64,000 nucleotides of DNA. Origin: Psammoneis japonica. Its lineage: Eukaryota. This document shows positions 1 through 56,487 of this stretch, in pieces. Location: assembly GCA_008632985.1 (NCBI GenBank), contig QPGO01000191.1:1-64000 (forward strand), in the 5' to 3' direction. How positions within the stretch are numbered: position 1 is the first letter of the stretch; each line of letters opens with the position of its first letter. The position numbers and the translations under genes were made by a program. A model generated the notes under the pieces. It worked only from the letters and a program-made list of their open reading frames with translations, was not told the DNA's origin and made no database searches.

Positions 1-2188
1 AGAACGAGAACTGGCCAGAGCAACACGCATTCGCGGGCATTTTGAGCCCACTCCATCGATTGCTGTGCCGGATTCACCCACTTCTCGCGACGACGTCACC
101 GATCAAGTCGCACCTGCGACTCAGCAGCCAACGCCACCAGTCCCACCTGCGACTCAAACTCCTGCAGACTCTGCGGACTCTACGCCAATTCAGCCACCTG
201 AACCTCAAGACAGCAACGGACTTCCGCCACCCGAAGCGCCGACGGAACCAACAGCTCCTCCCCCAGTCGAGACACCTCCTGTGACGAATCCAGAGGGAGC
301 ACCAGGGCTGCGACGGTCTTCACGGTCAACCAAGGGACAGTTCAACTCTGCCAAGTTTGTAGATGAGGTCTGCTTCAGCTCCGTCGAGGAAATGCCGCCA
401 CCGATCGGACACGAGGCTCAACTGGCGTACCTGGCGACTCTCGAGACGGATTTGGACAGTGGTGCCATCAATGTCGGCGATCCACGAGCCTGCGCAGCTA
501 GCAAGAAAACCAAGGACCCTGATGTGCCTTCGTTGCACAATGCTCTGAAAGGTCCGGACGCCGACGAATGGATTGAGGCGATGAAAATTGAAGTCAACGC
601 ACTCACACATCGTCGAGCCTGGAAAGCAGTCGAGCGTCAGCCGCGTGTGAATGTACTTCCAGGCACATGGGCACTGAAGCTCAAGAGACTCCCAGATGGA
701 ACCCCTCTCAAGCATGAGGCCCGATGCTGCGTCCGCGGTGATTTGCAGAAAGAAGGAGTCGACTGCTTCGAAACCCACGCGCCGGTTGTGCAATGGTCCA
801 GTGTCCGACTCATGCTCACTGCGGCATTGAAGGAGGGATGGACTGCATGACAGGTGGACTGTGCCACAGCCTTTTGCCAAGCTGATGTCGCCGAGGAAGT
901 TTGTGTGACACTGCCGAAGGGATTTGCGCCAAGGTCGGGACTCAATGTGGTTCTCAAACTTTTGAAAGGACCACACGGCCTAAAACAGTCTCCCAAGGGC
1001 TTCTACGAGAAGCTACGAGCTGGTTTAACCGAGCGCGGATGGGTGCCTTCAGCCACAGATCCCTGTTTGTATTTCAAAGAGGGCATGATGTGTGTGGTGC
1101 ACGTCGACGACACCGTTTTTGCTGGAGCTTCAGCTGAAGCTCTAGAAGCCGAAATTCGCAAGTTAGGAGTCTCCGACGACGAACATCGCCATGCATTTGA
1201 ACTTAGAGACGAAGGAGAAGTCGGCAACTTTCTCGGCATCAAGATCGAAAAGCTCTCCGAGGGTCGATTTCTGCTCACTCAACCCGGTCTAATTGACAAG
1301 GTCCCACGCACCACACAGATGCAGGATTGCAATGGAGCATCTGCTCCAGCTCTGCCTGCGGCTGTTGGTGCCGACACGGACGGCCTGCCTTTTGATGAAC
1401 CCTGCGATTGTCGCTCAGTTGTTGGAATGTTGATGCACTTGGCAGCGAACAGCCGGCCAGACATTGCACATGCCACACATCAAGCAGCTCGATTCTCGTT
1501 TGCGCCCCGAGCGTCCCACACTGCTGCAGTGAAGCGGATGCTCCGATGCCTCAAAGCAACTGCCACTGAAGGTCTCATTCTCAAGCCCACGCAAGATCAT
1601 CGAGTTGATTGTTACGTCGATTCTGACTTCGCGGGGTCATTTGGTGTGGAAGATGGTCAAGACCCAGTTTCTGTCAAGTCCAGGACTGGATGCCTCATCT
1701 GCTGCGCCAGCTGCCCGCTTGTCTGGGTGTCCAAGCTGCAGACTCTTGCAGCATTGTCGACTGTGGAAGCGGAACATGTCGCACTTTCTCAAGCCATGCG
1801 CGATCTCATCCCCACTCGTGAAGTTCTCAAGGAGCTCAACCACCACGCACTCGGAAAGTCTGACCGCCAAAACCCCATCACGACTCACTCCAAGGCTTTT
1901 GAGCTCGCAACCCAAGGCACCGATGACTCGCCTGTAGAGCAGAATGTCCCACCTGCGTCCGTTGTGTACGAAGATAACTCCGCGTGCCTCAAGTTCGCAC
2001 GTGTGCCCAAGTTGTCTCCGCGAACCAAACACATCGGCATCCCGCACCACTGGTTTAGGACTAAAGTCGAACAATTGGAGATCGATGTCCAACCTGTCAG
2101 CACTCTAGAGCAACTGGCCGATCAGTTCACGAAGGGACTACGGACCGATGCGTTCCGCACGGCTAGAAAGGCTCTTATGGGCTGGTGA
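1..2188 (+). mobile_element. Ty1/Copia (CoDi-like) LTR retrotransposon, 3' part of pol (RT + RNase H), degenerate; 5' part lies outside the window
   Basis: ORFs 65-850 and 854-2188 carry Copia RT motifs (WALKLKRLPDG..KHEARCCVRGDLQ, GLKQSP, CVVHVDD) and RNase H motifs (YVDSDFAG, KSRTG, ALSTVEAE, YEDNSAC, RTKHI, QLADQFTKGL). They are joined across a TGA at 848-850, likely from CGA. Confidence 0.95.
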
Positions 2189-2200
2189 GCTCTCTCGGTT

Positions 2201-2451
2201 GAGAGGGAGAGTCACGACTCAACGTCATTCTGGTCGCATCTCACGACTACAACCCAGACTCAGATTTTCTCTTCGAAATAATTAGCTCATCACAAAATCG
2301 ATTCAAACAGAAGCAACGACATTCGTCATAATTTCTGGACAACGACTTTCAACAAGCGTCTGTTTACCTCTGTCGCTATTCATATTGCTACCAACCTCCG
2401 AGGTCTTATCCATCCTACTCAGCTGTAGGACTGTATCTCGACTATTTCGAC
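2201..2451 (+). repeat. Polypurine tract plus probable 3' LTR of the Copia element
   Basis: GAGAGGGAG lies 12 nt after the pol stop, followed by ~240 bp of non-coding sequence ending ...TTTCGACA. The LTR end is inferred because the 5' LTR is not in the window. Confidence 0.55.
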
Positions 2452-2689
2452 AGCCCACTTTTTTTTTTACCTTTTTGTTTTTTCCAATTTTCGTTCGGAC
2501 AGCACACACACCCATGATCAATGGTCATAGACCTCTTTGATCCTGCTTGATCATTGATCATCTTCAATCTTCCTATCTTTGACACCAAAGCACAACTCAA
2601 GATGATGGCAGATCGGCGTGATTGGAGAGAATTCCATCCAAATCCCCCCTGCAGTATGTGTTAGGAAGAGCTGAACTTCAATATTTTCT

Positions 2690-4066
2690 CACAATGCGAT
2701 TCTTTCGGACGTCTCTTGGCTTTCTCAGTTCATTGCCAGCAACAGCAAGCACCTGTCTGTGCTTCTACAGCTGTAAAACTAGAACGAGACGGGGCTCCTG
2801 TATCCGGAGTTTGAAGATATCATATGAATAAGTATTGGTTTCGGGATGGACATACTCAAAGTTTGGCACACAATACAAAGATGCAGGGGACGAGTGTGAG
2901 CTGGCCGACGTTATCGGCGTGAAGCACTGTTTTGCTATGTAGACTACACCAAAGTACCAAAGCGTCGAATGTCGACAACTTTTGTCTGACCACGCTCTTT
3001 CGTTCTTTGTTGTCAATAGTCGATCGGTTGTACCCATGATTTTTTACTGCTATTGCAGCAATACCACTCGGAAAAACTAGTCTCGTCATCGATGACTGCA
3101 TTTGCCCAACAGTCGGCGGCACTGTTGTGATCTCGGCAAACGTGTCTTCGAGGAGTCGCTAGCACTGAAAGCAAAGAGGTCTTCTAATTAACGGTATCCC
3201 CCAACAACTATTTTACTACTAATATGATGTCTTTACAGCTATTGGTGATAAACCCACGTGCTTCCCCGTCTCCCCTGCCTTCTCCGGCAGGTTGAATGTT
3301 GCTTCACGACCACTCGGCAGAACTTTCTCCCCAATCAATGGCTTCCTTGGCCAGCTCGTCCGCGAACTGGTTACGATCACGGTAAATGTGCTCAAAGTCC
3401 GAGTCAAAATTAAAGTCATCAAGCATTTTTCGACAACGCCTGTAGAGCGGTCTTAGACGTGCGGAACGAACTTGGTAATCACCCTTCAAGTGCTTAATGA
3501 CCAATTCCGAATCTCCCTCGACTTGTAGAGTGTTGCGAATCTGAATGCCTTCGTCGCGAATGAACTTCAATCCATGCAAAACGCCCATGTACTCTGCAAC
3601 GTTGTTTGTGGCGTACGTTCCAATGTAGTGGCGACCTTTAGCGACCACCTTGCCCGTCGTTCCGTCCAGGAGCACCCATCCACTTCCCGAGACCCTGTCG
3701 CGGCCACGACAGGCACCATCAAATCGAAGGATCACAGTGTGATAGTACACCATTATTTGGAGTAAGGAGTAAAGTCTGCAACACGAAGGTTAAGAAAAGA
3801 AATGCGATGTAGTCCTCGTTGTTGAATAGAGTCGACAGAGGAAAATGACAACGGAGAAGCAGATGAGAAGCGTGTAGCGTGTACAAGTACATTATCTTCT
3901 TGACGTGGAGCGTGGACCGTGTTTGAGACGTGGTCGTGTTGGTTGTGATGAACAACAACGAGAGGGGCGAGGTTTTTAGATCCAAGAGATCGGAGATGTC
4001 ACGTTTTGTAGCCGTTGTCGTAGGAATTGTACTGAGATCTCGCGTGTAGAAAGTTCGTGGTCGAGA
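2690..4066. repeat. Copy A of a ~1.4-kb local direct duplication (RNase HI gene plus flanks); copy B is at ~6612-8021
   Basis: Collinear alignment by eye, e.g. 3809-3860 gtagtcctcgttgttgaatagagtcgacagaggaaaatgacaacggagaagc vs 7752-7803 gcagtcctcgttgttgaacagagtcgacagaggaaaatgacaacagagatgc. Confidence 0.9.
3304..3753 (-). CDS. Ribonuclease HI (archaeal/actinobacterial-type RNase HI-like), intact copy A
   Basis: Motifs FDGACRG, TNNVAEY, EGDSELVI and HIYRDRNQFADELA contain all four acidic catalytic residues. Confidence 0.9.
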   Translation of the reverse strand: MVYYHTVILRFDGACRGRDRVSGSGWVLLDGTTGKVVAKGRHYIGTYATNNVAEYMGVLHGLKFIRDEGIQIRNTLQVEGDSELVIKHLKGDYQVRSARLRPLYRRCRKMLDDFNFDSDFEHIYRDRNQFADELAKEAIDWGESSAEWS

Positions 4067-4095
4067 ACGAAATGCAACCCGCCATTCTGATTCCA

Positions 4096-4995
4096 TCATG
4101 ACTTTGCCTCATGGGCCTTGATGAATTCCAATATGTCGGCGCTGACTCTCTGCTTGTCCATGGCAACATCCAAGTGCCCCTTGCCCTCGTACATTTTCAA
4201 TGTACAATCTGGGATAAGCTCTACAGTTTCATTGGTATATTCAACGGGGAAATATGCATCCTTCTCCCCTGCAATGAGTAGAACTGGGACCTTGATCTTG
4301 AGAAGAACATCGCGAGCGTCCATGGCCTTTTCTGCCTCGGCTTCGACCATGACATCGGAAGCGGCATATTCATGAGGAGCATGAGTGCCGTACATCATTT
4401 TCATCATAATGCCACCGGTTAGTCCTGCCAGGAATGAAGGCCAAGTGGGGAAGATGGCCTTGGATATCTCCTTTCCAGCGGCAAATGGCTTGCCTTCACT
4501 CATCTTTTGGGCAAAGGCATAGTCTATGGCTGCGCCTTTTGGTTCAACTGCGTAGGCCGCCACCACGATGACGATATGCTCAAAGCAGTCGGCATGATTG
4601 GCTGCTAGGTATTGACCAATCATACCACCATAGGATACCCCAACAATTAAATCCGCTTTGCCTTCCTCCACATTTTCCGCAATACAATCCGCATAATCCT
4701 TGGCAACATCTGCCACTGTATGTCCTAGTGGCATGTTGCGTTTGCGAGCAATGGTAATAATCTTTCCAAAACCCGTTCCTTTTTCTAGCAAAGGTAGCAG
4801 GAGTCCCATTTCCACCTTGCCGCCCCATCCAGTGCTGGGAGCGGGATTGCCAGGTCCACCTGGAATGTTTATAATGGTCTTTAGTTGTTTCGAGGCAACA
4901 GCATCATCGCTGTGCTTTCTTTCGAGCGATGCCCACGCCATGCCATTGTCAAAGATGCCGCTGTCCCAAGATCTTTTGGCCCAACAGACTGTCAT
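4096..4995 (-). CDS. Alpha/beta-fold hydrolase
   Basis: GVSYGG nucleophile elbow, PVLLIAGEKD acid and GKGH catalytic His. Confidence 0.85.
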   Translation of the reverse strand: MTVCWAKRSWDSGIFDNGMAWASLERKHSDDAVASKQLKTIINIPGGPGNPAPSTGWGGKVEMGLLLPLLEKGTGFGKIITIARKRNMPLGHTVADVAKDYADCIAENVEEGKADLIVGVSYGGMIGQYLAANHADCFEHIVIVVAAYAVEPKGAAIDYAFAQKMSEGKPFAAGKEISKAIFPTWPSFLAGLTGGIMMKMMYGTHAPHEYAASDVMVEAEAEKAMDARDVLLKIKVPVLLIAGEKDAYFPVEYTNETVELIPDCTLKMYEGKGHLDVAMDKQRVSADILEFIKAHEAKS

Positions 4996-5199
4996 GTTGA
5001 TTGGTTTGCTGTTGAGGGTATGATGCTGTTGTTGTGTTAGGTTGTGTTAGTTTTAAGGATGAGATAGAAGACAGCATCAAGTAAGACGGCTTCGTTTTGG
5101 GTTTCAATCGTTTTATTGTGCTTGGTGATGTTGATTGATAGGATAGAAGATGCCTTGTACCGTATGGTCTGCTCATCTGTCCACCAAAGCCAAAAATTG

Positions 5200-6610
5200 A
5201 ACAAAAAGCAAAAAGCCACCCCCACTTTTCTCTCCTCGAACCACAGAGCTCCCCCATGTGCCGTGCAATTGCTGCACCGCATTGACAATGTGGCTGTGCT
5301 GTTGGAAAGACGGTGCAGAGGCAGCAGGTGCCACTGCTCCTGCTGCAGCGAGAAGTGATGGGGACGCCAGTGGCAGTTTGTCAGCTGCCACCACAGGCCC
5401 TCCTCTTTTTCTTGCCCTGGCCGCTGTCTTTTGGAGGGGGGTGCCAGCGGCGCTCCCAGTGAAGATGGTTGTCGCAAATTTGCTGTCATGGCTGAGATGG
5501 TGGAACTGGCATTGTGCTGCAGTTTGGAGTGCTGTTGTGTTGGCAGCAATGACAATGAAGGTGTGATGTCAGCAGCAGATTGTTGCTGTTTTGTTGCTGC
5601 TGTCGAGGCTGCTCTGGTTTCTTTTTGAAGCTCTTGCTGTCCCTGCTTCACATGTCCTGACCGCATGGAAAACAAATTTCTGGCAGGTTGTCAGCCAAAA
5701 TCTGCACAGTGGACAGACCATGGATGGCCTTGTGGCGGCCCTCCCACTGGCTTGCCTTGCACTGAAATGTGGAGCATGATCGCAGATTGACCGCTTCAGC
5801 ACCCGGAGCAAGCTGCAGCACAATGAAGAAAAAAGCAGTGCATCTTGTTGTTGTAACCACCTTTCTTGTCTTCTGCATTGTTGTTGCCTCCCTTGCTTTT
5901 GAAGTCATTGCCAGCATTGCTGCTTTGACCATCAAACAACAGTTTGGCAAGAAAAGGTTCAGGTGCACTGAATTCAGGGGTCTCCAAGCTGAAAATGAGC
6001 AGCCACACAGCTGGGCTTCACAAAAGTGCTTCCACTCCAAACAGCCATTGTCCAACAAGCCTTTGACTGTGACTTTGAGAAAACTGGTGGGATGTTGAAA
6101 GAGCCCTCCTCCATCTCGAACTTCGTTCCAACCACACTGGAGAGCTGCCCCCAGCAAACGTGCTGCTCAGCACGCTTCATTGGCAGTGTGGTGGCATTGT
6201 GCCATTCTGACATTGCAACTGGAATTCACACTCAGGTGCGTGCACTGGCATGACAGTTGCTGTGAGGTGCAAGCCATCACAGTGATTTGCTTTGGGGTTC
6301 TCTGTGCTGGCAACTTGCTGCATCACACCTTGGGGCAGCTGGGTGCAGAGCAGGCCCAGCTGCACACCAGTGCAGGCTGCTTCCAATTGGCAGGCATCAT
6401 GGCTTTGGAAATCTTGCTTCTCAGGACAAAGAGCCCTGGAAATGCACCACTGGGGTGGCTGGGGTCAGTGCTGAGCAGTGGAGTGACAAGGGCCAAGAAG
6501 CTGGGTGTGCAAGTGATGGCGCCAGTGACCAAAAAGAACAAGGAGCACCTTTTGAAGTTGGCCACAAGAACCTCATTCACTTCCACAAGAAAAACTTTCC
6601 ATGTGTTGGG
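5200..6610. repeat. Degenerate TpA- and CpG-depleted segment, probable TE remnant of unidentified family
   Basis: Almost no TA and few CG dinucleotides; overlapping Cys/His-rich, Tyr-free ORFs in all frames; no recognisable domain. Confidence 0.5.
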
Positions 6611-7241
6611 CGCAATGTGATTCTTTAGGACGTCTCTCGGCTTTCTCATTTCATTTTCAGCAGTGCAAGCAGCAAGTGCCTGTGAATGTCTGTGCTTCCA
6701 GCTGTCAAACTAAAAGAGTCGGGGAACTTGTGTTTCGGAGTTTGAAGACATGAGTGAGCTTTGGTTCTGGGATGGGCATGCTCAAAGTTTGGAACACAAT
6801 GCAAAGTTGAAGGGCACGAGAATGAGCTGGTCGACGATGTCGGCGTGTTGCAGTGTTTTGCCATGGCATGTGCACCAAAGCATCGAATGACGACAGCTCA
6901 CACCTGACCACTCTCTGTCATTCTTTGTTGTCGACAGTCGATCAGTTGTGCCTGTGATTTTTTACTGCTGTTGCAGCAACACCACTTGGAAGAACCAGTC
7001 TCATCATCAATGGCTTCATTGGTCAAACAGTCGGCGACGCTGTTGCGCTCCCGGTGAACGTGCTAAAAATCATTGGACATCGATTTCTTCTAGAAGTCAT
7101 TGTGCACTGAAAGTAAAGAGTTCTTCTAATTGTCCCACAACAACCATTTCTGCCACTGCTGTGATGTTTTGGTGGCACTTGGTCACAAACACATGCTTTC
7201 CCCCGTCTCCCCTGCCTGCTCTGGCCAGTTGAATTTGCAGC

Positions 7242-7691
7242 TCACAACCACTCGGCAGAACTTTCCTGCCAATCAACAGCTTGGTTGGCCAGCTTGTCAG
7301 TGTGCGTGTTGCGATCACGGTGAATGTGCTTGAAGTCCACCACAAAGTCAAAGTCACACAGCATCTTTTGACAGTGGTTGTAGAGCGGTCTTAGACGTGG
7401 GGAATGCACTTGGCATTCACCCTTCAACTGATTGATGACCAGCTCCGAATCTCCCTGGACGTGCAGCATGTTGTGAATCTGAGTGCCTTCATTGCGAATG
7501 AACATCAATCAACCCAAAACACCCGTGCACTCCGCAACATTGTTGGTGGCTTCTGCTCCAATGTGGTGTCGACCTTTGGCAACCACCTTGCTGTTCTTTC
7601 CGTCCAGAAGCACCCATCCACTTCCCGAGTCCCTGCTCCCGCCACGACAGGCACCATCAAATCGAAGGATCAAAGTGTGACAGCATCCCAT
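7242..7691 (-). pseudogene. RNase HI pseudogene (copy B), hypermutated
   Basis: Collinear with 3304-3753: MGCCHTLILRFDGACRG...TNNVAEC..., in-frame TGA at 7509-7511, then GDSELVI...HIHRDRN. Confidence 0.9.
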
Positions 7692-8980
7692 TTGGAGCAT
7701 AAAGTGCAAAAGTCTGCAACACGAAAAGGCAATGAACAGAAAGGTTGTGATGCAGTCCTCGTTGTTGAACAGAGTCGACAGAGGAAAATGACAACAGAGA
7801 TGCAGATGAGAAGCGTGTGGCGTGTGAACAAGCACAGCACCTTGATGTGGAGCGTGTGTTTGAGACGTGGGGTGTGATGAACAGCAACCAAAGGCGAAAT
7901 CCAACGAACGACCATTGCGATCCATGACAAAAAGTGACATCTGGAGTGTCACCGCACGCTTCGTAGCCGTTGCCGCAGGAACTGCACTCAAGATCTCGCA
8001 TGTAGAACGTTCGTTGGCGAGCAGTGCAATGTCGAAAAGATCCATGTGTGCAGCATGACGGACCACGACGTGACATGCCCGCCACCACTTTTTGGATCTT
8101 GCTGTTGCATTTGACTTCTTCTTTTGAGTTGACTCATTTGAATTTTTTGTGTCCCCTTTTCGTTTTTTCGAGAGTTTGCGATCGCCAGGAGGTGGCGTCT
8201 TGATGCACAAGGCAAGCAGCTCCAGCTCAATGAGTTCATTGGCCTTTCTGGAAGCTGCTGGTGATGGGACATTTTCTTTATCTTCCCTGTTGTTGGGACT
8301 TGGTAGAGACGTTGGTTCAAGATTGGCGGCGTGCAAAGCACGTGATTGGGCGACTTTCTCCGAAGCCGCGAGCCTTCGATGCGCACGCGGAAAACCCGGC
8401 ATCTTGGATTCTTTTGCAAATGGCATTTGATTCAACAGCAGCTTTTTCAACAATAGAGAGTGTTTCACAAACAATTTTCAGACAGTTGCTGGCCTTTTTC
8501 AAGTCACGTGCAGTGCTGTTTCTGTCGTCGAGAATTTGCCTGGCATCTCTCAAAATGACTTGCTGTTGACGGGTGGCTTGTGCAAGGTCGGCATTACGAA
8601 GCTGAGTTTCAAGTGATTTGTCTTTTGTAGACCTTCTAATGGTAGCATCACCATCTGTTTTAGTCATATTTTTTGTTGTAGCAATGAAGAGCTTTTGCGT
8701 TCATCCGAGATCGTTCTTTTTTTTTTCGTGTCGTTTTGTGTGTTGTTTTCGGCGCGTGCTCTCGGATGACTCGCACGAAGGTCGAACGCCCAAAATGACC
8801 TTTTGAGTGTCCATCTGCGCTCGGTGTCCATCTGCGCACGCCGGTAGCTTGGGGTGACTTCTTCGATCTTTTCCGTTTTCGCCCTTGACTGTGCTTGATT
8901 GCGATCAACGATCACAACGAACTGAACAACCTGCGAAACATTTTTTCACACAGTAACGTGAATGGTATTGCTCCAAGCCA

Positions 8981-9877
8981 ATGCTATCTTATTTTAAAGT
9001 GCCAAGGCTTATCAGCTTCATCTTTGTTATCCTGAACGTGGCATCTGCGTATACCAACGGCATGACATTCTCGACTCAAAACAATGTGCAAGTACGGAAT
9101 CGTCGTCAACAACCACAAGCGGCCGGTTCAACCCAACAAGTCCGCCCCAGCAGTCGTCGCGCCGGCGTTACACTATATGCGCAAGAAGGAGAAGGTTCAT
9201 CAAAGCACAAGGCAAATTATTTGTCACTAGTCTCGCGACCCCACGAGAGAGGTATATTTGCATTCTATGCATTGGTTGGGATGGCCGTGTCCACGTTGAC
9301 TGAAAAGCAGGGCCTGTTTCAAGTTGGAATTGCGATAATGTGGGCATCCTTTGTCTTGGCTATTTCATTCATGGAAGCTTGGGTCAAGTTCAAAGCGCCG
9401 TTTCTTAACAAATATGTTGCCGTCGATGTGGGTCGCCACGTGTTTGCCGCGCTCCAATCCGCAGAACTCGGCATGTGCACGGCTCTGTGGTTCTCGTGCA
9501 CACGGCTACTAGCGAGTGGATTTAAATGGAGGCCACGCTTTTCGGCTCTAACCATTGCAACCGCGTGCCTGGTGGGAGAAGCGCTCTTCGTTGCTCCCCG
9601 CCTCTATCTGCGAGCCAAGGCACGAATTGTAGAGGGATTTCAAAGTCTCCCGCCAGACGTGAAAGATGGTCTCTTGAGTAAGGAGCAAGAAAAAGAACTC
9701 GACAAGGTTTCTCGTGATGTGGATGAGCGCAAGGATTCCATGCCTTCAAAGAAGTGGCATTCAGCATACGGAGTACTCGAACTTGTCAAAGTGGTGGCTC
9801 TTGTATTCTTTGCGGTTGCCTCTTGGTTTGAACTTTTCTGCGATGTACTGGTACATTACGCCCCAAAGGGATGGTAG
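8981..9877 (+). CDS. Signal-peptide-bearing multi-pass membrane protein, DUF4149/TMEM205-like
   Basis: N-terminal hydrophobic signal, ~4-5 TM segments and the motif FMEAWVKFKAPFL..VDVGRHVFAAL. Confidence 0.65.
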   Translation: MLSYFKVPRLISFIFVILNVASAYTNGMTFSTQNNVQVRNRRQQPQAAGSTQQVRPSSRRAGVTLYAQEGEGSSKHKANYLSLVSRPHERGIFAFYALVGMAVSTLTEKQGLFQVGIAIMWASFVLAISFMEAWVKFKAPFLNKYVAVDVGRHVFAALQSAELGMCTALWFSCTRLLASGFKWRPRFSALTIATACLVGEALFVAPRLYLRAKARIVEGFQSLPPDVKDGLLSKEQEKELDKVSRDVDERKDSMPSKKWHSAYGVLELVKVVALVFFAVASWFELFCDVLVHYAPKGW

Positions 9878-9918
9878 CAGTTTCTACGTGTATGCTTTCA
9901 AGGCTATCTTTTCAGAAG

Positions 9919-10008
9919 GTTAAAGTTGAGTTCCATTTCGGAGTCCAAGCAAGGTTTTGCTCTCTACTGAATGTGTGCTATAGCTATTTGTGCGACTTTT
10001 GCGTACAT
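9919..10008 (+). repeat. 90-bp imperfect direct repeat, left copy
   Basis: Ungapped 81/90 identity to 15953-16042 (manual alignment). Confidence 0.9.
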
Positions 10009-10219
10009 GTTGTGACCGACCGTTCCCCGGTTCTTTCGCCTGTCTGTCCTTTCGGATACGCCGAACTCCCCCGCGCTGCTCCATAGCATAGGCAGATACA
10101 AAGTCTTCGCTAGGTTAGAGACAACACTACCCTAGCTTCCATAAAAGGGAAAAGAAAATATCTTATTACAACTCTTACAAGAGACGATTGCTGTACTCTT
10201 TACCATTCTTTCAATCAAT

Positions 10220-24883: not shown

Positions 24884-25129
24884 GACAAGTAAAGACGCTC
24901 CTGTGTAATGAAGGACTATGTACGAGTGATCTTCTGGTTGCTAAGTTTCCGCGGTGTAGCACTTTCAACATCCAACATTACATTGCCATTTCGGTCGTCG
25001 TTCGTCGTCGTTGATGGCTGCGCTGAGCGCTGCGAGGCTGTCGGCTGTCGGCGGCAGTTTTTTCTCGCGCGACTTGAAGTTGTTTCCTCGCGCAAATTGA
25101 AAGTGCTCCGCATCACTACAGTTCACGAC

Positions 25130-26450
25130 TGGTGTGTGGCCTTGTTCTTGCAGCGAGTTTCACCTCGCCCCTGCGGGGCCCACTTGTTGATTTGGGAGCC
25201 ATGCGTGAACAACTCCCCAGGCACCAAGCCCATGTTGTGGTTCTGTGGTTGGGTTGGGTCAAGGAAGAGCACCGGGAGCAGCAACACCTGCTGCCTGTTG
25301 TCCAGATTGTCGTCAGAGAGTGATGAGCTGTTTGATCCGCCCCAGGCAGCAAGCCCAAGCCATCACAATGCTGCAAGCCTTGAAGGGCATTCTCAGGGAC
25401 TGACTGTCTCTGACAGTGTGCTTTCCATGCAAGATGCCAATGCCTTCCTTCACCAGACTCTTTTGGAAATCTTCGATGGCCCCACCCGCCAAGACAGAAT
25501 CATCGATTCCAAGCTCAGTTTTTTGCCCAGCTGGTGCACAGGTGCAAATCCCTGGACTCATCATGGAGCACTGCTCTGGGTTTGGCAGAGGCCATGTCAG
25601 CACTTGGAACAATGAAGAGGGGCCAAAAAGACACAGGATCAACAGGGACATTGTTTGAGTTAGAAGCCAGCTGGAAGTCACACACAAGCATTGCTGCCAG
25701 AAGTCAAAAATGCCGGACTTTGTTGAGGGTGCAGACATCAAATGATGCACTCTGTTGCTTGGCAGCCCAGCAGAGTGTGTTTGTCTTGCTCAAGTTGCCA
25801 TGAGACAGCAAGTGAGCACTGGTGCAGCTCTCCATTTCCGTGGTCAGCAGCTTCCGGGGGGGGGTCATGTCAAGCTTGCTTTTCTCTCTTTACAAATTTG
25901 CAAAACCATGCTCCTGTCAACAAGCACACTTGAGATTGTCAGCAAAAATGACAACCTGGCAGCCATGCATGGCTTTGTGCTTAACTTGTGATGTCTGCCA
26001 AGCAAGCTTGAAGCTGCTGGGGCCCCTTCTTCAGATGTGCTGACCTCTGCACTGCTGGACTGTGTGATGATTCACTCAACACCCCTGCTTTTGAAGCGCC
26101 TTTGTGCTGATTCATCTGGGCCTGTTTGTTTTGCTCAGACATTCTTCTTCAGTTGGCGTGCATGCACCCAGATTGACAATGATCTAGCCCAGCATGGGAT
26201 TCAGCCCTGCTGTGATGATGGCATTCTCAAGACTCTTGCTGGCCAAAGAAATTGGGTCTGTGGTGGCATCTTTCGAGGGTCACCTAAACATTGTTTGTGG
26301 TGGGCCACGGCAAAAACGAGACTAAATCTGGATTTTGCCACCCCGACTTTCCAAGCCTCAGCATGTCGTGATGCCCTCTGCTCACAGGAAGAAAACACAC
26401 TCACCTTGGCTGTTCAGAGAAACACACGCTCATCTCTTGTGCAGAGGTGT
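25130..26450. repeat. Degenerate TpA/CpG-depleted segment (TE remnant or pseudogene)
   Basis: Abrupt loss of TA between ~25130 and ~26450; Tyr-free, Cys/His-rich ORFs. Confidence 0.55.
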
Positions 26451-28499: not shown

Positions 28500-29738
28500 A
28501 TGCTTATCGCGCAACCTGCCCCGCGCGCGCCCGCCGCCCCGCCCGCGATCCGCGATCTTTTTGAAGAAATGGCACAAAAGGGAAGTCAAAAACGAACCAT
28601 GGATACCGAAGAAGAATCCCTTACTGCACAACTCGAGTGGGTCACTCGACAAATGCCTCGTTTGCAAAGAGCCTTGAGCCGCTGGGTCCCCGCCGCACAG
28701 GAGCATGAGCCGCCGGCACGAATCGCGATCTGCACACATTTAGACATCAAAATGGTACCGCTCTATTCACACCTGCTCTCGTCGCTCGGACATGAACTGT
28801 TTATCACAACCTGTGATCCCAACACCGTACGCGATCAAGTAGTTCAATACCTAAAAGAATGTGGCGCGAAAACGCATGCCTGGAAAGGCATGAGCGAATC
28901 CGAGTGGCGCGACAGCCTGGAACGTGCCGCGAAATGGCAACCAGACTATATATGTGAGTTTGGTGGCGAGCTAACGTCCGTTGTGCTGAGACAAACCCAG
29001 TCGTCGCTCAAGGGGGTGCTCGAAGGAACCGGCTCGGGTGTAGCTCGCTTGGCTCCACAGGCATTGACGGTGCCCGTGTTGAATTGGGACGAAGTAAATG
29101 CCAAAGAAGGCTTGCATAACCGGCACATGGTTGGGTTGACGGCTTGGCATGCCTTCATGCAGCGAACCCACCTGTCGTTGCACGAAAAAGTAGTAACCAT
29201 ACTGGGCTATGGCTTGGTTGGACAAGGGGTTGCAGAGGCAGCAAAAGCCTTTGGTGGGCAAGTCAGGGTTGTGGAGATTGACGATGCTCGCGCTCTCATG
29301 GCGGGTTATGACGGTTGGTCTACCGGGGAACTGAGGGCTCTGCTGCCCCGAACAGATGTTCTCGTTACAGCTACTGGTGCAAAAGGTGTGATTGGTTTGG
29401 ATGAGTTGTCGCAATTAAAACATGGTGCTTTTGTGATGAACGTTGGTCACGGCACGGGCGAAATTCGCGCCGCAGAACTGGCCCATCTACCGCATCGTCA
29501 AGTTCTACCACATGTCTTTGAATACCGACTTGAGCAAAAGATGCTCTATCTTCTGGCAAATGGAGCCATGTTTAATTTGACTGCGGGTTTCGGAGACAGT
29601 TTGAATGCTTTTGACGTTACGATGGCCATTATGGCGGGCGGACTTCGATTTCTTATGGAAAACGCATCAGAACTATCTCCAGGAATGATGGTTTTGCCCG
29701 ACGCGGCTTGGAAAGACGCTGTAAAAGCCGTTGATTAG
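28500..29738 (+). CDS. ahcY: Adenosylhomocysteinase-like protein (divergent, bacterial-type, intronless; start probably 28569 or 28599)
   Basis: MPRL, CTHLDIKM, GYGLVGQGVA, VVEID..RAL, TATG, NVGH, LLANG..FNL. Confidence 0.8.
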   Translation: MLIAQPAPRAPAAPPAIRDLFEEMAQKGSQKRTMDTEEESLTAQLEWVTRQMPRLQRALSRWVPAAQEHEPPARIAICTHLDIKMVPLYSHLLSSLGHELFITTCDPNTVRDQVVQYLKECGAKTHAWKGMSESEWRDSLERAAKWQPDYICEFGGELTSVVLRQTQSSLKGVLEGTGSGVARLAPQALTVPVLNWDEVNAKEGLHNRHMVGLTAWHAFMQRTHLSLHEKVVTILGYGLVGQGVAEAAKAFGGQVRVVEIDDARALMAGYDGWSTGELRALLPRTDVLVTATGAKGVIGLDELSQLKHGAFVMNVGHGTGEIRAAELAHLPHRQVLPHVFEYRLEQKMLYLLANGAMFNLTAGFGDSLNAFDVTMAIMAGGLRFLMENASELSPGMMVLPDAAWKDAVKAVD

Positions 29739-37219: not shown

Positions 37220-38090
37220 AGTTTCGTTGTTGCTGCTGTATTTTCTCTACTGCGCTGCTATTTCAGAACGGACCAACCGTCCGCTTGTCAAGTGAAAAAA
37301 AAGAGTCTTGTTTGTGTGATTGAGATGCCCGAGGGCCAAAAGCGTAACAGCAGAAAGCGTTGCTTCGTTCTTCACACCCTCTTGGCGATGTTTTTGGAGA
37401 TGAGGCGGTGATCATTTTTTTTTCGAATGGCTTGCTGCTGCAAGGCTGGTATGTTTCCACGTAGAATCTACGCAATAAGTGTGGGACTGGCCTCATTCCG
37501 TAGAATGCTACGCAGCTTGTACTAAACCTTGATGGGTGGCAAGGGCTTTCAGAGCCACCCGTCTCCAGAAGATGTAGCCACGTCATCAGGGTTCGCTTTT
37601 TCTACAGGAGCTTCAGTACAAACCCAAGTTGAAGTGTGTGAGTGTGTCAACATGACGTGACGTTGGGGTGACATTGCCCCAGTGTCATGGATACAAATTT
37701 ATACAGCATTAATGAAAATGTAATAGATGCACTTCGATTGTGCCTTTCAACCACTGTGACTGGCTGTGCGCCGAAGCTGGAAACGCACTTCTTCTTGCAA
37801 CACAGCAGTGCAAGGGGGAGCAATCAAGGAGGAGTGCCGCAAAATGGAAAGAGCAGATAAGACCAACCAAGAGTGTGTTGCAGATGATGCTTTGCTGCAA
37901 AACATTTCTCCTGGAGAGAAAGAGCCCCTCGCTGCCGCTTCTCCCCCAGCTCTGCAGCAATGCACACACAAGCAGCTGCAGCAGTGCACAGCACATTTTC
38001 ATGAAAGCAAGCAGGGTCATTGAGAAGAGGCAGAGAGAGACAGAGAGAGAGGGGGGGAGAGAGAGAGAGAGGGAGAGAGAGAGAGAGACA

Positions 38091-39870
38091 GCTCACCCAT
38101 CTGGAGTGCGGTCTGGCCTTGTCGTGGGGCTTCAAAATTCTTTGGCTGCTTTCTTTTGTGCAGTGCTGGCTTCTCTGATTTGTTTGTCACATTTGTTGGC
38201 AGTGGTGATTCCAGAGAATGAGAGCTCTGATCCATCTGGAGCACTGTGTCTGGCCTTGTCATGGGGTTGCTTTTCTGCTGCAAACACTTCATTGACGACG
38301 TCTTTGGCACTTGTGCACTGTGCTTGAAGAACGAGTGCAAACAAACAAAGTGCAAATTGTGAGATTAAATTTTGCTCTGTGATTTTTGGTTTCTCCAAAC
38401 AAGCTCTCAATGGCCCAAAGCTTCTGCACTACTTCTGCAAACAAAAGGCCTTTCAGAGAATGCAGTCGTGACAACAGATTGTCCGAATGCGGCCGACTGG
38501 CATTGACACGTGAGATGTCAACATCATCTGTCAATCACATTTGCAATTTTTGACTTCTGATCAACTTTGTGTGATTGTTTTGTCCTTTGTGTGCATCCAC
38601 GGCTGTGGTGCGATTGACACATGTGCAGCGCACAATTGCAATTTTGTGTGTGTGACAGTTGCATGCTGCACTTGGCATGTCCCGACCAACCCTGCCACCA
38701 ATGCTGCAACCTGGGAAGCATTTGCCTCCAAGCTCAATGACTTTAATGTCACCTGGATCACAGGCCCCAGAAGCCACAAGTGAGCTTCATGGACCTCACA
38801 ATCTCACTCCAAGTCTCACACCTTCATGCCACCCACTGTGAAAAAGAAATGAGTTTGTGCATGTCCATCCCACCACACTCAGCTCACCCGCCTGGAGCAC
38901 TCACCGGCCCAATCACAGGCATGCTCTTTTGCTTTGAAAACCTCTGCTCTAACCAAGGAGATGATGCCAAAGCAAAAATGAAACTGCTCTGCCACTGACT
39001 GCAAGCCTGAGGCCACAAGCCCAGCAAACCACTGCCACTCTTCCACAAAGCATGTGCAAACCTCATCTTTGGCAATGCTGCCACAGCTGAAGAGCCCAGT
39101 TGAAGAACCCTGTCTTCTTGCACATCCCATGCCATCCAAATGACCCACCATCAAGCAAACTTTGGAAGCTCTGGAAAGGTGCAATGGCCCACCCTCTCTG
39201 CTCACAACCTCTCTCAAACCTCCGCAACCACGTGCAACAATGCATCAGACTCGATCACACCATTGTTGCTCTGCTCTGCAGTTGCTCACACAACCTTGGA
39301 AATTTGCTCTCATGCTGCAACCTTTGCATCTCACATGGCCCCCAGTTTCATCCTGCTGGATCGCAAACAGAGAGGCTGTTAAGAGAGAGAGAAAGAGAGA
39401 GAGAGATGAAGAGCAACACACGATTCGAACCATTTGAATCAATTGGGTGCCCAGTCTGCCCCTCACCCCCCAGATCTTTTGAGTGCAACAACTTCAACCA
39501 TGCAAACAACAGCAGCCAGCCACTGATGAAGCCACTGCAAAAGTCTCACTTTTCTGACTTTGGTGCCAACATTGTTGTGCCTGCTGTTCGCTGCAACAGC
39601 TGGACAAATGTCTGAACAAGTGGCTCCACCTTGGCCACCTGTGTCTTCTTGTTTGTCACATTTGACAGATTCAAGAGAGAGAGCTCACCCATCTGGAGTG
39701 CTGTCTGGCATTGTCATGGGGTCCCCCCATTTAAAAATCTTTGCTTTCTTCTGTGCCACACTGGCTTCTCTGATTTGTTTGTCACATTTGTTGGCAGTGG
39801 TTGCTCCAGAGAGAGAGCTCTCATCCATCTGGAGCAATGTCTGGCCTTGTCACGGGGTTGCTTTTCCACT
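38091..39870 (+). repeat. ~190-bp direct repeats (38091-38280 and 39683-39870) flanking the Penelope-like fragment; (GA)n microsatellites nearby
   Basis: Both copies share gctcacccatctggagtgc..ctggcttctctgatttgtttgtcacatttgttggcagtgg..catctggagca. Confidence 0.75.
38700..39340 (+). mobile_element. Penelope-like retroelement RT/thumb fragment, degenerate
   Basis: FMDLTISL..HATHCEKEMSLCMSIPPHSAHPPG, matching consensus LYEK.MNLY.YIPP.S.HPPG with Y->H/C; also FLHIPCHP.DP and HNLGNLLS. Confidence 0.7.
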
Positions 39871-40121
39871 TCAAAAATCTCTGCTCCAACCCAAAGATGG
39901 TGCAAAAGCAAAAATGCAAGCTTGCAAGCTGCTGCAAGCCTGACAAGCTGCTGCAGCTCTTCAAGCCATGGGCCTGCACTCTTCACTTGCAGCTCCCCCC
40001 CCCTCTGATGCTCACAACCACACTTGGCATTGAACTGGACTCACCTGCATGATTGTGCACAGCAGCCAAACCCACAATCTTGGCACAACATCCACTCATG
40101 CTGTGACCTTCCCATCCCCCC

Positions 40122-40133
40122 NNNNNNNNNNNN
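40122..40133. other. Assembly gap (N run)
   Basis: 12 N characters. Confidence 1.
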
Positions 40134-40537
40134 CCCCCTCTCCATGCACTGACAGTGGCCAAGAGAGAGAGAGAGAGAGCAGTGCATCTGCTTGGGTCAT
40201 GCCATTTGTTTGCTGAGAGCATGTGCAAGTGAGAGGAAGAGAGAGCTGGACTGCACGAGAAACTGCATTGAAAAAACAATCAAACAAATCCACTGACCTG
40301 TCTTCTGCTGGTCAGATTTTTTAAACACAATGACAGCAGCCAGCCACTGACAAAGCCACCACAAAAGTCTTGCTCCTTGCTTTGGCCCAACATTGTTGTG
40401 CCTGTCATTTGCTGAACAGTTGGACAAATGTCCAAACTGGCAGCTCCCACCTTGGCTGGTTTCACTCTTGTTTGTCACATGTTGCAGAGAATTGGCTGTG
40501 CTGATTCTGTTCATTTGTTTGAGTGAGAGAGAGAGAG

Positions 40538-40572
<35 letters not shown>

Positions 40573-41999
40573 CAGAGACAGAGAGAGAGACAGAGCAGTG
40601 CATCTGCCTGGGTCATCATGTCATTTGTTTGCTCAGAGTCTGTGCAACCTTCTGCAGCACCAGATCTTTCCCAACACAACAGCTTCAAGAACCATGTTGA
40701 CAACAGCAGCCAGCTCATCTGCAAAACATTTTCTCCACATTCAATGAAAGAGCAATTGACCAACACTTTGGCATGATGACAGAACATTGACACATTTTTC
40801 TCTGCCTCATTTTTACAATTCATTTTTACAATGCAAGGTGTGTGATGCTTCTTTGTCATTCAGCAAACAACAATTGTCTGAAATGTTCAGCTTGTTTGAA
40901 TGTGCAAAACAAAAGTGTGAAATGACAAGTTGCAAAGAACTGCAAAAAATCTTGTGATAAAAAATGCACAACTTGTTCTTCATCTGTTTTGATTTTGGGT
41001 TGTGTTTGCTGAGTTGTTGTTTGCTTTGTTCACAATTGTCTGGCATGCTCATGTGTGTGTGTCCTTGCTGTTGTTTGCACCAGAAACAAAGAGCCAACAC
41101 CGCACCTGTGCACAATTGTTTGCTGCTCATTTGCAGTTTGTCTGTTGACCAATGCATTGCAGTTTGCATTCTGTGCAGCTCACATTGCACTGACCAATTG
41201 TGACATTTGGTTTTTGCTGCCAGCCCTTGTTTGCGATCTGCCTCTTTCACCAAAATTGCTTCCTGCCTTCCAACCTTGACAACTGGAGACACTCATAATT
41301 TCTTGCATCTTGCCAGCTTCTTGCCCACCATCCCTTGATTTGCTGTCCCTTGACGTGTCATCTCCCTGCAGCTCAGCATTTGACAGAACATTGTGCTGTT
41401 GCACAACATTTGTGAAGACTTCATTGATCATTTCTGTGCCTCAGCTTTCTCACCTTTTTGTTGTTTTTTGCACAAAACAACCATCTGGCCAAGAATTTCT
41501 GCTGGCACTTTGTGTGCTCTTCTTTTGTTGATGACAACAAATGCAGCAAAGCCAATTGTGAGCATTGTGCTTCTCTTTTGAACATGTTTGACAAAACCTG
41601 TTTTGTTTCTTGTGCCCTCACCTTGTTGACATCATCCATTGTTCTTTCATCTTTTTTCAGACAACCAGTGTGCTTGCTTCACTTTGTCCCCATGTTCCTT
41701 TGTTGCGTTGGTGCATGGTGGCATTGCAAGTGTGCTGTGTCTTTTCAAATCATCAACTCATGTCAGCACCCACGGCCCCCTTTTTTGTGTTGCACCTGTC
41801 TGCGTGGGCTGCAAAGAATGAGTTTTCACTCACATGTTTTTTCCCTGCTTTTTTGCTTCAGTGTGGTTTTGAATTTTTTTTTGTTTTTTGGCAAAGGTGT
41901 TTCTGTTTGTGCACGCCATTCTTTGTTCTCACCTCTCAATGACATTGCTGTTGTGTCTGCATGTGTCACAATTCATTTTGAGTCTTGTTTGGCACTTTC

Positions 42000-44900
42000 C
42001 ATTCTTGCATGGAACACTCCATCTTGCTCACAATTTTCTGTTCAAAGATTCATTGACTTGCTTGCAACATCACCCTGTCTGAGATGCAGGAACACAGAGC
42101 TTTCATCTTGCACTCCTTCACTCCCCACAGCAACAGCACAACAGGTTTGCCACCAGGCTTTGTTTGTTTGCCATGGTGCCAAGAAGAAAACGAGCAAAGA
42201 CTCTGGCCAGGTCGATGAAGGTTGTGGTTTGCACCCCAGCAAACTTGTTGAGTTTGACACCATCCCCAGCTCATCTCATGATCTTGCCTGTGAATCAATG
42301 GAAAGTTTGTCAACCCTTCCCAACACCAGTCCACATTGAGGCTCCTCACTGGTGGGGTTCACACTTGGCCAGCTTTCTGCATCACGTTGGTTTCTCAGCA
42401 TCAGAAAAATTGTTGGACAAGCCAACAAAACTAAAAAAAAGAGCCTCAAATCCAACAAAATGAAGAGGCAACTCTGAACAAGGCCAAAATGATCTCTGAT
42501 CTCAAGGAAAAAGCAAAAATTTTGAGTTGCTGTCATGATGCAGATGAAGACATGGGCTTTTGGATGGTGATGCAGAGACCAAGAAATCCCTTGGTGAGCA
42601 GAAATTGTGAAACTCAAAAAGGACAGAATGGCATTGCATGGAAAAGTGAAACATCTGAAAGACTGCACCTCCAGTTTGAAACACAAGAAGAAGTCTGGCA
42701 GCAAAAAACAGCTGCAAAAATTGGAGGAGTTTCTTCAGTTTGTGTGCACCACTGCCTTTGGGAACCATCTGTCAATTTTCCAATTGCTCTTTGGACTTGG
42801 CTTTTCATCCAAGTTGGTGAGTGTTGCTTGGATCAATGCATCTGTCTCCATTGTTGCATTGTCTTTCTTTCCATTTCCCAACTCCCTCCTTTCTTCAGGT
42901 CATTGTCAACAAACAGAGTGTGGACAACACTATGGCATCTGCCACTTCATTTGACTTGACTTTTTGCAGTGCCTGCCATGTGTGACCTTGTTGTCAAACA
43001 TGCCACTGGTCAGCATCTCTGAAAAACAGGCAAGCACACATTTGACAGCCCTGCTTGTCATGCCTGTTTCTGGAACAAGAGGATGTTTCAGCCCAAGCTC
43101 TTCATGCTTTCAACCAAGAGTGCAGCTGTTTCAACCAGCTGCCAAAGAAGATCATCACTCCCTTTCTTCCAGTGGAGCACAGCACTTTGGAGCCAATGAG
43201 AAAACCCCACCAACATTTTGGACAAGTTGGAAAAAATTCATCATCTGAGTCTGAAACATTGTCAGAGCTGCCTGTTCCCTCAGAGGGCATTTGGCACCTT
43301 CTTCCAATGCCGCCATGAGAGAAGTGCCCCTCCCTTGCTGACTTTGGCAACACATGACAGTTGAGCAGGGCCTCAAGCAAGTGCTTCATGGTTGTCAAAA
43401 GATGAAACAAATGATGCACTTTCCTGGGCAGATGTCCATTGATGCCATTGACGCTGCCCCCAACATTTGGAATGTCCCAGAGTGCAGCTTCAACAAGGAG
43501 CTGAAAAACTCTCCTGAGCTGATGCTCTGGCAGAAGTCACTTTTTGCCATGTTCTCTTGACTCCACAACCTTGAATGAATCTTCAACCATCTTGGAAATC
43601 TGAGATTGACAAACAAACTCATGAACAAAGGCAGGGTCATCCTGAGCTTTTGGGGGGTGCCACAATCAGGGGCCATTCCAGAGAAGTTGGAGGAGTGAGA
43701 GCTGCAATGGCAAAACACATGTCATCACCCATGTGGCCTTTTGTGATGCCTGTTGTCATGCACAAGCAGAGGTGCAAATGATGAATGCCAAGTTTGTCAC
43801 CATGGTCAATCCGTGTTCCTTGCTTCACAGATGCAAGGGCTTTGGTTTCAGCAAAAACAAAACAAAGAGCATCATGGCAAAACTTGATGCAGCTCTCTTG
43901 CCAGTCCACTGTGTTCTGTCCTCAGTCCTTTCATCACAGGACTTGGGACACATTGGGGTCATGCCCAGAACAAACCAGCTCTTTGCTGGGTGGCAGAAAC
44001 AATTGTCAATGTCTCCAATCATGGTGCAAAGAACTGGCTGGGTGACCAGCCTCCCTGTTTGGTCGCAGAAGGTTGAGTTGTCAAAAGCAGGCAATGGTGG
44101 GGTGACAGTGAAGTGAGGGCGGGTCTGGTGGGCAGTCATCATCAAGTGTTTTCCAGGTCCTGTCACAGCTCTTAACAAGCTTCTTTCCACCAACCACTGC
44201 TGTTCAGAGGCCTGCAAACACAGTTGCTGGGATCTTTGGCACTGTGCTGGTGCTCTTCACAGAGTCACATGGCATCTTTGTGAAACTGCAGATCTTGGAA
44301 AAGACAGCAGGCATTGTAGAACAAAGAAGATTGGCGCACATGCATGGGAGGGAATTCAGGACCAGCATGCCTTGGCAAGGAGGTGGGCTGGCACAAGGAA
44401 GACACTTCTTCTTCATTCGGCTCATGGTTGTTGTGCACAGGACAGAATCTTGCTAAACTTGCCATTGCTCTGGGGTGCACAGTGGCAGAAGGGAAGAATG
44501 TCTTGGCACAAGTGAGCCAGAAGGTGGTTGTTTCTCATCATGACAACAAGGTCCTCTTCCACAGGATGAAGCTTCTTTGTCAAAGAACTCCTCATTTTCA
44601 GAGCATGGCTGTCTTGAAGAAGAGATGCAATGGAGCCAAGGTCCTCAATGTTGATGGGATCTGCAAACTCAAAGGAACCATCTGAGGTCAAACCACACAC
44701 ATCTTCATTGTGCAAAGGCTGAAACAAAGATTCAAAGTTGTCTTGAAAATGCCTGACCCCATCATTGCTGTGAACTGTGGGTGCATCAGAGTCATCACCT
44801 GATGATCACCTGTGTCATCAACAGAAGAGTTGCTGCAAGAAAAAACACTGGGAGATTCCTTTGGGCATCCACCAGGGAGGAAAGCACAATGGTGGGGTCA

Positions 44901-45000
44901 AAATGATGCATCCATGAGACAAACACTCAAAGCAATGTTGCTGAGGAGTGTGGATTGGAGGCTGTTGCCAGCTGAGGTGCTGAGGCTGCTCTCCATCACA
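42000..45000 (-). mobile_element. Degenerate DNA transposase remnant, Plavaka/CACTA-like
   Basis: Fragments QPVLCTMIGDID..KSWFVLGM, FCHDALCFVF..HLHLCLCM..G.DDM.CHCSSH..DC and HHLFHL resemble Plavaka-type transposases after reverting C/H to Y/R. Confidence 0.45.

Positions 45001-56444: not shown

Positions 56445-56487
<43 letters not shown>

Follow-up and report, generated by a model that had tools for sequence, protein, structure and literature searches.

The locus analyzed here lies in the first 64,000 nucleotides of contig QPGO01000191.1 of the diatom Psammoneis japonica (NCBI GenBank assembly GCA_008632985.1), a stretch of DNA that we refer to in its entirety as the window. It consists of two copies of a 1.4-kb unit that encompasses an RNase H-like gene together with its flanks; the copies are separated by 2.5 kb and differ sharply in the content of the dinucleotide TpA (hereafter, TA). 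Copy A (2692..4065) is unmutated, with observed/expected (o/e) ratios of 0.66 for TA and 1.12 for CG, whereas in the hypermutated copy B (6613..8021), these ratios are 0.13 and 0.67, respectively, and 38 of the 58 ancestral TA sites have become TG or CA. A first-pass annotation made from the sequence alone proposed that only one of the copies was mutated and, a single codon of copy A excepted (see below), the TA content of the two copies bears this out. The best explanation for this contrast, which we consider likely, is a TpA-directed mutator that is addressed by position to the island containing copy B and spares copy A.

The relationship between the two copies is unequivocal. A BLASTN search aligns 2692-4065 with 6613-8021 at 74.9% identity over 1454 columns, and in the MAFFT alignment of A and B, 1054 of the 1348 ungapped columns (78%) are identical; apart from two short repeats at 38-40 kb, this is the sole duplication of at least 150 bases in the window. 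The background divergence is high, with transversions at 120 of 1310 positions, which implies that the duplication is old. The gene in copy A (3304..3753, minus strand) is an intact open reading frame (ORF) of 149 codons, including 8 Tyr codons, as the first-pass annotation had it, with significant matches to the Pfam families RVT_3 (E = 2.2e-24; 86.2 bits against a cut-off of 21.6) and RNase_H (E = 1.3e-5; 25.8 bits, exactly at the cut-off of 25.8). Its FDGA, AEY, GDSE, and RDRN motifs, which we take to be catalytic, align with those of the homologs, 565 of which were detected at E <= 1e-5, the nearest one showing 64% identity. In copy B, the corresponding sequence (7242..7691, minus strand) still begins with ATG and stays in frame, but it has lost 6 Tyr and shows non-synonymous differences from A in 48 of its 149 codons. 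The only internal stop codon is a TGA at codon 61 (7509..7511, minus strand), where A has GGA. Downstream of the B gene, there is an additional fragment that corresponds to the C-terminus of RNase H (6982..7083, minus strand; tblastn E = 2.4e-5; BLASTN match of 3297-3399 to 6969-7071). The counterpart of this fragment in copy A (3040-3140) carries a 23-base deletion (alignment columns 507-529), so that a partial duplication apparently preceded the A/B duplication. The two copies are separated by an alpha/beta hydrolase gene (4096..4995, minus strand; Pfam Abhydrolase_1 and related families; TA o/e 0.61). A tblastn search of the window for a decayed further copy of the hydrolase, the presence of which would point to a larger duplicated unit, found none.

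The differences between the two copies are concentrated at a single dinucleotide. Among the 58 aligned TA sites of copy A, 20 correspond to CA and 18 to TG in copy B, 7 are retained, and 13 are changed in other ways; the reverse case, that is, TA in B against CA or TG in A, was observed once. Counting substitutions by dinucleotide, we found that a change of any kind occurred at 51 of 58 TA sites compared with 392 of 1185 for the 14 dinucleotides other than TA and CG (Fisher's exact test, odds ratio 14.7, p = 4e-17). The conversion to TG or CA affects both the coding sequence (11 of 14 sites) and the non-coding flanks (27 of 44), in agreement with the earlier argument that codon selection could not account for the pattern, and all eight non-coding changes, of both the TA and the CG types, that had been quoted in its support are present in the alignment. 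The frequency of A-to-G substitution per adenine is 39/112 after T compared with 23/202 after A, 16/181 after C, and 17/187 after G; given that there is no increase at AA, the motif is TA rather than WA (W, A or T). The CG sites follow a parallel, weaker trend: of the 86 aligned CG in copy A, 30 are TG or CA in copy B, with 7 cases in the opposite direction. The changes show no sign of strand coordination along copy B, where TG and CA outcomes form 19 runs against 19.96 expected (P = 0.44), and no strand asymmetry in the overall counts of TG and CA in B (149 vs 138, p = 0.56).

The sequence context of the change was further characterized by comparing 46 TA-poor with 60 normal 500-base bins and expressing the survival of each NTAN tetranucleotide relative to the normal bins. 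Relative survival declines from TTAA (0.52) through CTAA (0.28), GTAA (0.15), CTAC (0.12), and CTAG (0.087) to the lowest values, those of ATAA (0.079), ATAG (0.032), GTAC (0.024), ATAC (0.007), and ATAT (0). This order fits independent hits on each strand, with the preference TAT > TAC > TAG > TAA, and the polarized A/B events agree with it, with 27 of 62 TA sites followed by a pyrimidine (TAY) affected compared with 12 of 50 followed by a purine (TAR).

The asymmetry between A and B does not, by itself, establish the direction of change because classical repeat-induced point mutation (RIP) acting on A would produce the same picture. We therefore polarized the differences by aligning both copies with 26 RNase H homologs. 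The eight Tyr of protein A correspond to C, C, H, E, C, C, Y, and H in B, so that the count given in the first-pass annotation (six Cys or His, one Tyr retained, one changed otherwise) is exact. The columns of Tyr55 and Tyr93 contain Tyr in 26 of the 26 homologs, and that of Tyr43 in 23; Tyr is found in 14 homologs in the Tyr3 column, in 6 in the Tyr4 column (with Phe in another 18), and in 4, including the closest relative, in the Tyr124 column. Not one of the 26 homologs has Cys in any of these six columns. The exception among the eight is Tyr47, the site where B differs otherwise: no homolog has Tyr in this position, and here the change probably occurred in A itself, as judged from the alignment. 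When the 66 differing codons were polarized on the closest homolog, 18 were synonymous, 19 derived in B, and 9 derived in A, whereas 20 remained unresolved; TA is absent from all 9 of the A-derived codons. Because the homologs have Tyr, and never Cys, where B has Cys or His, copy B is the changed one; the ancestral state of these sites is not TG or CA.

As dictated by the genetic code, conversion of TA to TG or CA removes stop codons and replaces Tyr with Cys or His. It cannot create a stop: both TAA and TAG contain TA, and TGA arises by this route only from TAA. The corresponding footprint is apparent across the window, where Tyr makes up 0-0.9% of the residues of long ORFs in TA-poor DNA compared with 1.9-5.4% in the four intact genes compared, gene A included.

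Copy B occupies only part of a sharply bounded TA-poor domain (5164..8627) that contains 17 TA in 3464 bases. On the left, densely spaced TA ends at 5163 and the next TA is at 5854; on the right, TA occurs at 8595 and then densely from 8628 onward. The borders are located 168 bases from the ATG of the hydrolase gene and about 355 bases from that of the ORF 8981-9877, and the TA-poor tract extends beyond copy B by 1450 bases to the left and 600 bases to the right, in DNA that has no counterpart near copy A. The left part, a degenerate block (5201..6612), is the most decayed portion of the domain, with a single TA in 1412 bases (o/e 0.01) and a CG o/e of 0.24. None of its 7 ORFs matches a Pfam family at E < 0.001, and a wider search with 9 ORFs from the block and the right flank (E up to 1) yielded nothing below 0.003 or near a curated cut-off; BLASTN and TBLASTX detected no relative of either the block or the right flank elsewhere in the window, and the block is covered by contigs of ordinary depth. 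The right part (8022..8627), which is not homologous to A, has a TA o/e of 0.11 and a CG o/e of 0.87, with 4 TA in 8022-8600. Contigs assembled from public reads reach a word depth of 377-708 across 8084-8785, against about 58 in other places, and have loose ends at 8100 and 8176; this hints that the stretch is repeated in the genome, although word depth is not a copy number.

Outside the domain, TA is maintained regardless of coding status: the o/e is 0.66 in copy A as a whole, 0.76 and 0.66 in its two non-coding flanks, and 0.51-0.61 in the neighboring genes, compared with 0.13 in B. The values for the flanks of A imply that unconstrained DNA outside the island keeps its TA. Furthermore, the loss of TA does not require the loss of CG. 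In two stretches, namely, positions 1-2000 within a copia-type element (TA o/e 0.19, CG o/e 0.88) and 8022-8600 (0.11 and 0.87), TA is strongly depleted where CG is near normal, indicating that the two losses are separate processes; CpG decay seems to lag behind the erasure of TA. With a TA-poor tract wider than copy B and copy A spared, the targeting follows position rather than homology. The earlier suggestion that the choice of target is position-dependent, unlike RIP in Neurospora, thus gains support from the coverage of DNA non-homologous to A by the tract.

Another line of evidence comes from public reads (three runs from one sample and study), the contigs of which were compared with the window over 2000-9000. 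The contigs of one run, denoted X1, represent a second version of the locus: the X1 contig covering 3852-7681 differs from the window in 21 letters and that covering 7652-7963 in 3, with none in the contig covering 2444-3441. Among the differences listed, on which all the counts that follow are based, 22 fall within the domain, at 5361-7916, and a single one outside, at 4225, that is, 22 per 2800 bases compared with 1 per 2429 (p = 2e-5). The 22 listed differences inside comprise 14 of CpG against TG or CA, 2 of TpA against TG or CA, and 6 others; 8 of the CpG differences have CG in the window and 6 in the reads, and the TpA differences go one each way. Normalized per site, the listed differences affect 14 of 81 CpG sites inside the domain and 0 of 115 outside (p = 2e-6), and 2 of 12 TpA sites inside and 0 of 101 outside (p = 0.01), with 6 among the 2614 other sites inside. 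The surviving TpA and CpG sites of the island, therefore, differ about 70 times more often than the other sites, in terms of the differences listed, and the process is possibly still active in situ.

The X1 version also provides an order of events. Eight of the listed differences are located in the reading frame of B (7312-7640), none of them in a codon where Tyr was lost. At position 7511, the X1 contig has C instead of the A of the window, so that codon 61 is GGA, as in copy A, and the X1 version of B is an open frame of 149 codons that still lacks the six Tyr. This version shares the codons of A at positions 56, 70, and 96, and the residue of A, by a different codon, at position 18, and it has lost CpGs at codons 125 and 127 that are retained in the window. 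Given that the six Tyr losses are common to both versions and the stop is found in one, the Tyr losses are older than the nonsense mutation. Accordingly, the description of B as a pseudogene, put forward in the first-pass annotation, holds for the window, with its in-frame TGA, but not for the X1 version; in the strict sense, the term fits one version only.

Copy A is not perfectly untouched. At its codon 42 (window position 3630), the window has CAC (His), whereas one X1 contig (depth 57 of 108.5) and the run X2 have TAC (Tyr), which is also the residue of the two closest homologs; the difference may stem from one TA-to-CA hit in A or from reads of another paralog. Additional contigs over the A gene and its upstream region (3404-3990) differ from the window at 3692, 3699, and 3700 and carry a base inserted after 3763, and one contig over A skips 3915-3985, which suggests either a further paralog or an A allele that lacks 71 bases.

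TA-poor DNA is not confined to the domain around copy B. By dinucleotide content, the window contains four islands, at 1-2050, 5164-8627, about 24980-26180, and about 37860-57110, with TA o/e of 0.01-0.19 and TG+CA raised to 1.5-2.1, compared with TA o/e of 0.5-0.6 and CG o/e of about 1 in the genic stretches. The first island belongs to a copia-type retroelement (1..2443, plus strand; RVT_2 matches in ORFs 2-850 and 854-2188) that runs past the left end of the window. The element is TA-poor only to about position 2050; its last portion, 2001-2443, has a TA o/e of 0.62 although the repeat, with a contig word depth of 7400-10200 against about 58, extends to 2443, where loose ends are found at 2443/2444. 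The TA-poor tract, hence, stops about 390 bases inside the repeat, and the borders of such tracts do not follow repeat edges. The island at about 37860-57110 is a 19-kb TA-poor block that includes the lowest CG content in the window (o/e 0.02-0.3 at 38-46 kb), 12 N at 40122-40133, and the repeat pairs 38082-38284/39674-39875 and 39509-39669/40333-40488. The segment 46512-54439 within this block contains six long plus-strand ORFs (254-547 aa) that are TA-poor and nearly Tyr-free and have no Pfam match; for the last of these, 14 relatives were detected at E <= 1e-3, one of them with a zf-RVT domain (PF13966), so this segment is probably a retroelement resembling long interspersed nuclear elements (LINE-like). 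The island at about 24980-26180 is small, TA-poor, and CG-poor and lies between the ELP1 gene and the next ORF; a 235-aa ORF at 24908-25615 has no Pfam match. The nearest Atlas clusters of an adenosylhomocysteinase-like ORF (28500-29738) are all bacterial (score 0.97), which may simply reflect the make-up of the Atlas. By contrast, the acetolactate synthase encoded in the window has its best named matches exclusively in pennate diatoms (Bacillariaceae sp., Mayamaea, Cylindrotheca, Phaeodactylum, and Nitzschia), at 60-66% identity.

In the scenario that we favor, an old local duplication produced the two 1.4-kb units, each an RNase H-like gene with its flanks, with copy B placed within the 3.46-kb intergenic island 5164-8627, between the decayed block and the repeated element. 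The island behaves as one unit in which a mutator operating in place, at the level of DNA, turns TpA into TpG or CpA (A:T to G:C), affecting both strands equally and preferring TA followed by a pyrimidine. The CpG sites of the island decay more slowly, via the usual C-to-T route, and copy A, 2.5 kb away in ordinary genic DNA, is spared. The trigger would be the location of the DNA, most likely, silenced, CpG-methylated chromatin seeded by transposon remnants, and not the duplication itself. Genes caught in the island would be disabled by missense changes, chiefly of Tyr to Cys or His, which in B preceded the sole nonsense mutation. As for the chemistry, adenine in DNA would be converted to hypoxanthine by a deaminase of the TadA/ADAT-like kind with specificity for TpA; the deaminases that modify adenosine in tRNA have an inherent U-A context, given that their target A34 comes directly after the near-universal U33. 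We further infer that the domain is methylated heterochromatin, from its specific CpG hypermutability combined with the CpG methylation of diatom transposons described in a published study (PMC9998398).

Several observations weigh against this scenario. The specificity for TA is strong but not absolute: A-to-G changes outside TA are also mildly elevated in the direction of B, at about 10% compared with about 6.5% in the opposite direction. TpA accounts for only 2 of the listed present-day differences, as the domain has little TA left in which further changes could occur. The sample behind the X1 contigs is also the probable source of the assembly; these contigs attest to the presence of a version, not to allele frequencies, and the X1 version may be either a second haplotype or a sub-line. 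In the coding part of A, although not in its flanks, hits would be concealed by purifying selection. Finally, the block 5201-6612 may itself once have been a repeat, in which case a past homology trigger could have operated there and spread into B.

Apart from the position-addressed mutator, the local signature could be attributed to error-prone repair synthesis, whereby a polymerase-eta-like enzyme that miscopies T at WA would be recruited repeatedly to methylated DNA in the course of the repair of deaminated 5-methylcytosine. A-to-G change at TA is a known hallmark of such enzymes, and TA loss and CpG hypermutability do share the domain, with 14 of 81 CpG sites showing listed differences inside and none of 115 outside. 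Nevertheless, substitution at AA is not raised (23/202 compared with 16/181 at CA and 17/187 at GA), and strong TA loss at intact CG in 1-2000 and 8022-8600 would call for near-perfect CpG repair, making this explanation unlikely. We also consider it rather improbable that a homology trigger of the RIP type, with a different chemistry, mutated only B and leaked into its flanks. To be sure, B is a duplicate, the stretch to the right of it appears to be repeated (word depth of 377-708 vs about 58), and the TA-poor DNA of the window is mainly of transposon origin. However, A shares 1.4 kb with B and yet has normal TA, with 1 reverse event against 38; no relative was detected in the window for the most thoroughly erased part, 5201-6612, where contig depth is ordinary; and the TA-poor tract of the copia element ends about 390 bases inside the repeat.

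Still less credible is the possibility that B is a retrocopy of an RNA edited from A to I by an ADAR-like enzyme acting on double-stranded RNA. Both strands are hit, as expected of a double-stranded RNA substrate, and ADAR-type enzymes prefer U before the edited A, according to a recent preprint (10.64898/2026.01.13.699255). Yet the homology between B and A reaches about 330 bases upstream of the ATG and 630 bases downstream of the gene, neither end of B carries a poly(A) or poly(T) tract, the unrelated DNA on either side of B is equally erased, and within the domain, the window and X1 versions differ from each other in situ. The reverse polarity, with B ancestral and A having gained TA through classical RIP (CpA to TpA), derives whatever appeal it has from the fact that the 38 vs 1 asymmetry alone gives no direction, and is refuted by the protein outgroup, where homologs have Tyr like A and never Cys and the 9 A-derived codons are devoid of TA, as well as by the intactness of A, despite the propensity of RIP to make stops, and by the TA content of A, which is that of the genic background, with that of B far below; we assign it a negligible probability. 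No more probable is the shaping of B by codon or dinucleotide selection or by GC-biased gene conversion which, although TA is under-represented genome-wide (o/e 0.5-0.6 in genes), is contradicted by the same bias in the non-coding flanks (27/44) and by the decay of B (in which 48 codon differences are non-synonymous and 18 synonymous, and a stop is present), gene conversion being neither TA-specific nor coupled with CpG loss.

The locus can be compared with several known systems. RIP, known from Neurospora and other ascomycetes, introduces dense local transitions, C:G to T:A and mostly CpA to TpA; it usually mutates both copies of a duplication along a tract that follows the duplicated segment, and is a premeiotic process that depends on a RID-type cytosine methyltransferase. 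The process described here resembles RIP in that dense local transitions kill repeats and gene duplicates, with a signature that involves TpA, CpA, and TpG. In contrast to RIP, TpA is destroyed rather than created, no stop codons are made, one copy of a linked duplication is spared, and the mutated tract is not coextensive with the duplicated segment. In animals, APOBEC and ADAR enzymes edit retroelements prior to integration, their substrates being the intermediates of reverse transcription or RNA. The common features in this case are deaminase-type hypermutation, the dinucleotide context, and the aim at selfish DNA; the difference is that here resident DNA of any origin within the domain is affected, on both strands. 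Decay driven by CpG methylation is represented in the domain by the CG to TG/CA changes (30 vs 7) and by the predominance of CpG among the listed present-day differences; unlike such decay, TA loss changes the opposite base pair and occurs without CG loss in two stretches. In diatoms, transposons are CpG-methylated via DNMT5a, and DNMT4 is reported to be related to RID but acts on cytosine (PMC9998398).

The closest match is to the chlorarachniophyte Bigelowiella natans. According to the preprint of Mettrop et al. (bioRxiv 2026, 10.64898/2026.01.13.699255), 231 of the 302 new mutations in mutation-accumulation lines of this organism fell in two viral regions, and nearly all of these were A:T to G:C changes on TpA; the targets are integrated giant-virus and virophage DNA, and an adenine deaminase is proposed there, without proof, as the agent. 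The points of resemblance are the change of A:T to G:C at TpA, yielding TpG or CpA on either strand; the confinement to discrete regions, with a rate far above that in the flanks (in our case, as gauged by divergence rather than as a measured rate); and the depletion of TpA along with enrichment of CpA and TpG, which in B. natans is also seen in reverse-transcriptase and DDE coding sequences. There are also differences. The host is a diatom, that is, a stramenopile; the targets appear to be transposon-derived intergenic islands, one of which trapped a copy of a host gene (B itself, alongside the block 5201-6612 that matches no family, with copia reverse transcriptase and LINE-like ORFs in other TA-poor stretches); erasure is nearly complete, with 1 TA in 1412 bases, compared with a TpA rho of 0.45 for the viral region of B. 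natans; CpG decay occurs in the same domain; and the evidence consists of divergence between paralogs and between two versions of a locus. Full-text literature searches yielded no description of TpA-to-TpG/CpA hypermutation in diatoms; the only report of such hypermutation that they retrieved is the B. natans preprint, the supplements of which might list further taxa. By analogy of signature, the P. japonica locus qualifies as a further instance of this recently described TpA hypermutation.

What the present locus adds is the polarity provided by 26 proteins, the contrast between two copies only one of which is mutated, an erased tract that does not coincide with the homologous segment, a relative dating of the missense and nonsense changes, and the present-day differences. 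It amounts to a natural experiment on the targeting rule of TpA hypermutation, with the same sequence present 2.5 kb apart, erased in one place and spared in the other. In a broader and distinctly more tentative interpretation, to which we give somewhat less than even chances, diatoms would possess a chromatin-addressed DNA adenine mutator that is still running. Rhizaria would have it too, which might place its origin far back within SAR (stramenopiles, alveolates, and Rhizaria). Any DNA in a silenced island, be it a transposon, an unclassified sequence, or a spare copy of a host gene, would be progressively rewritten at TpA, preferably at TAY, on both strands. If this is true, reversible silencing becomes permanent genetic death without stop codons. 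The coordinates given here delineate sites for a comparison of methylation, histone modifications, and newly arising mutations, which could settle whether eukaryotes other than fungi turn silencing into mutation, and by which enzyme.

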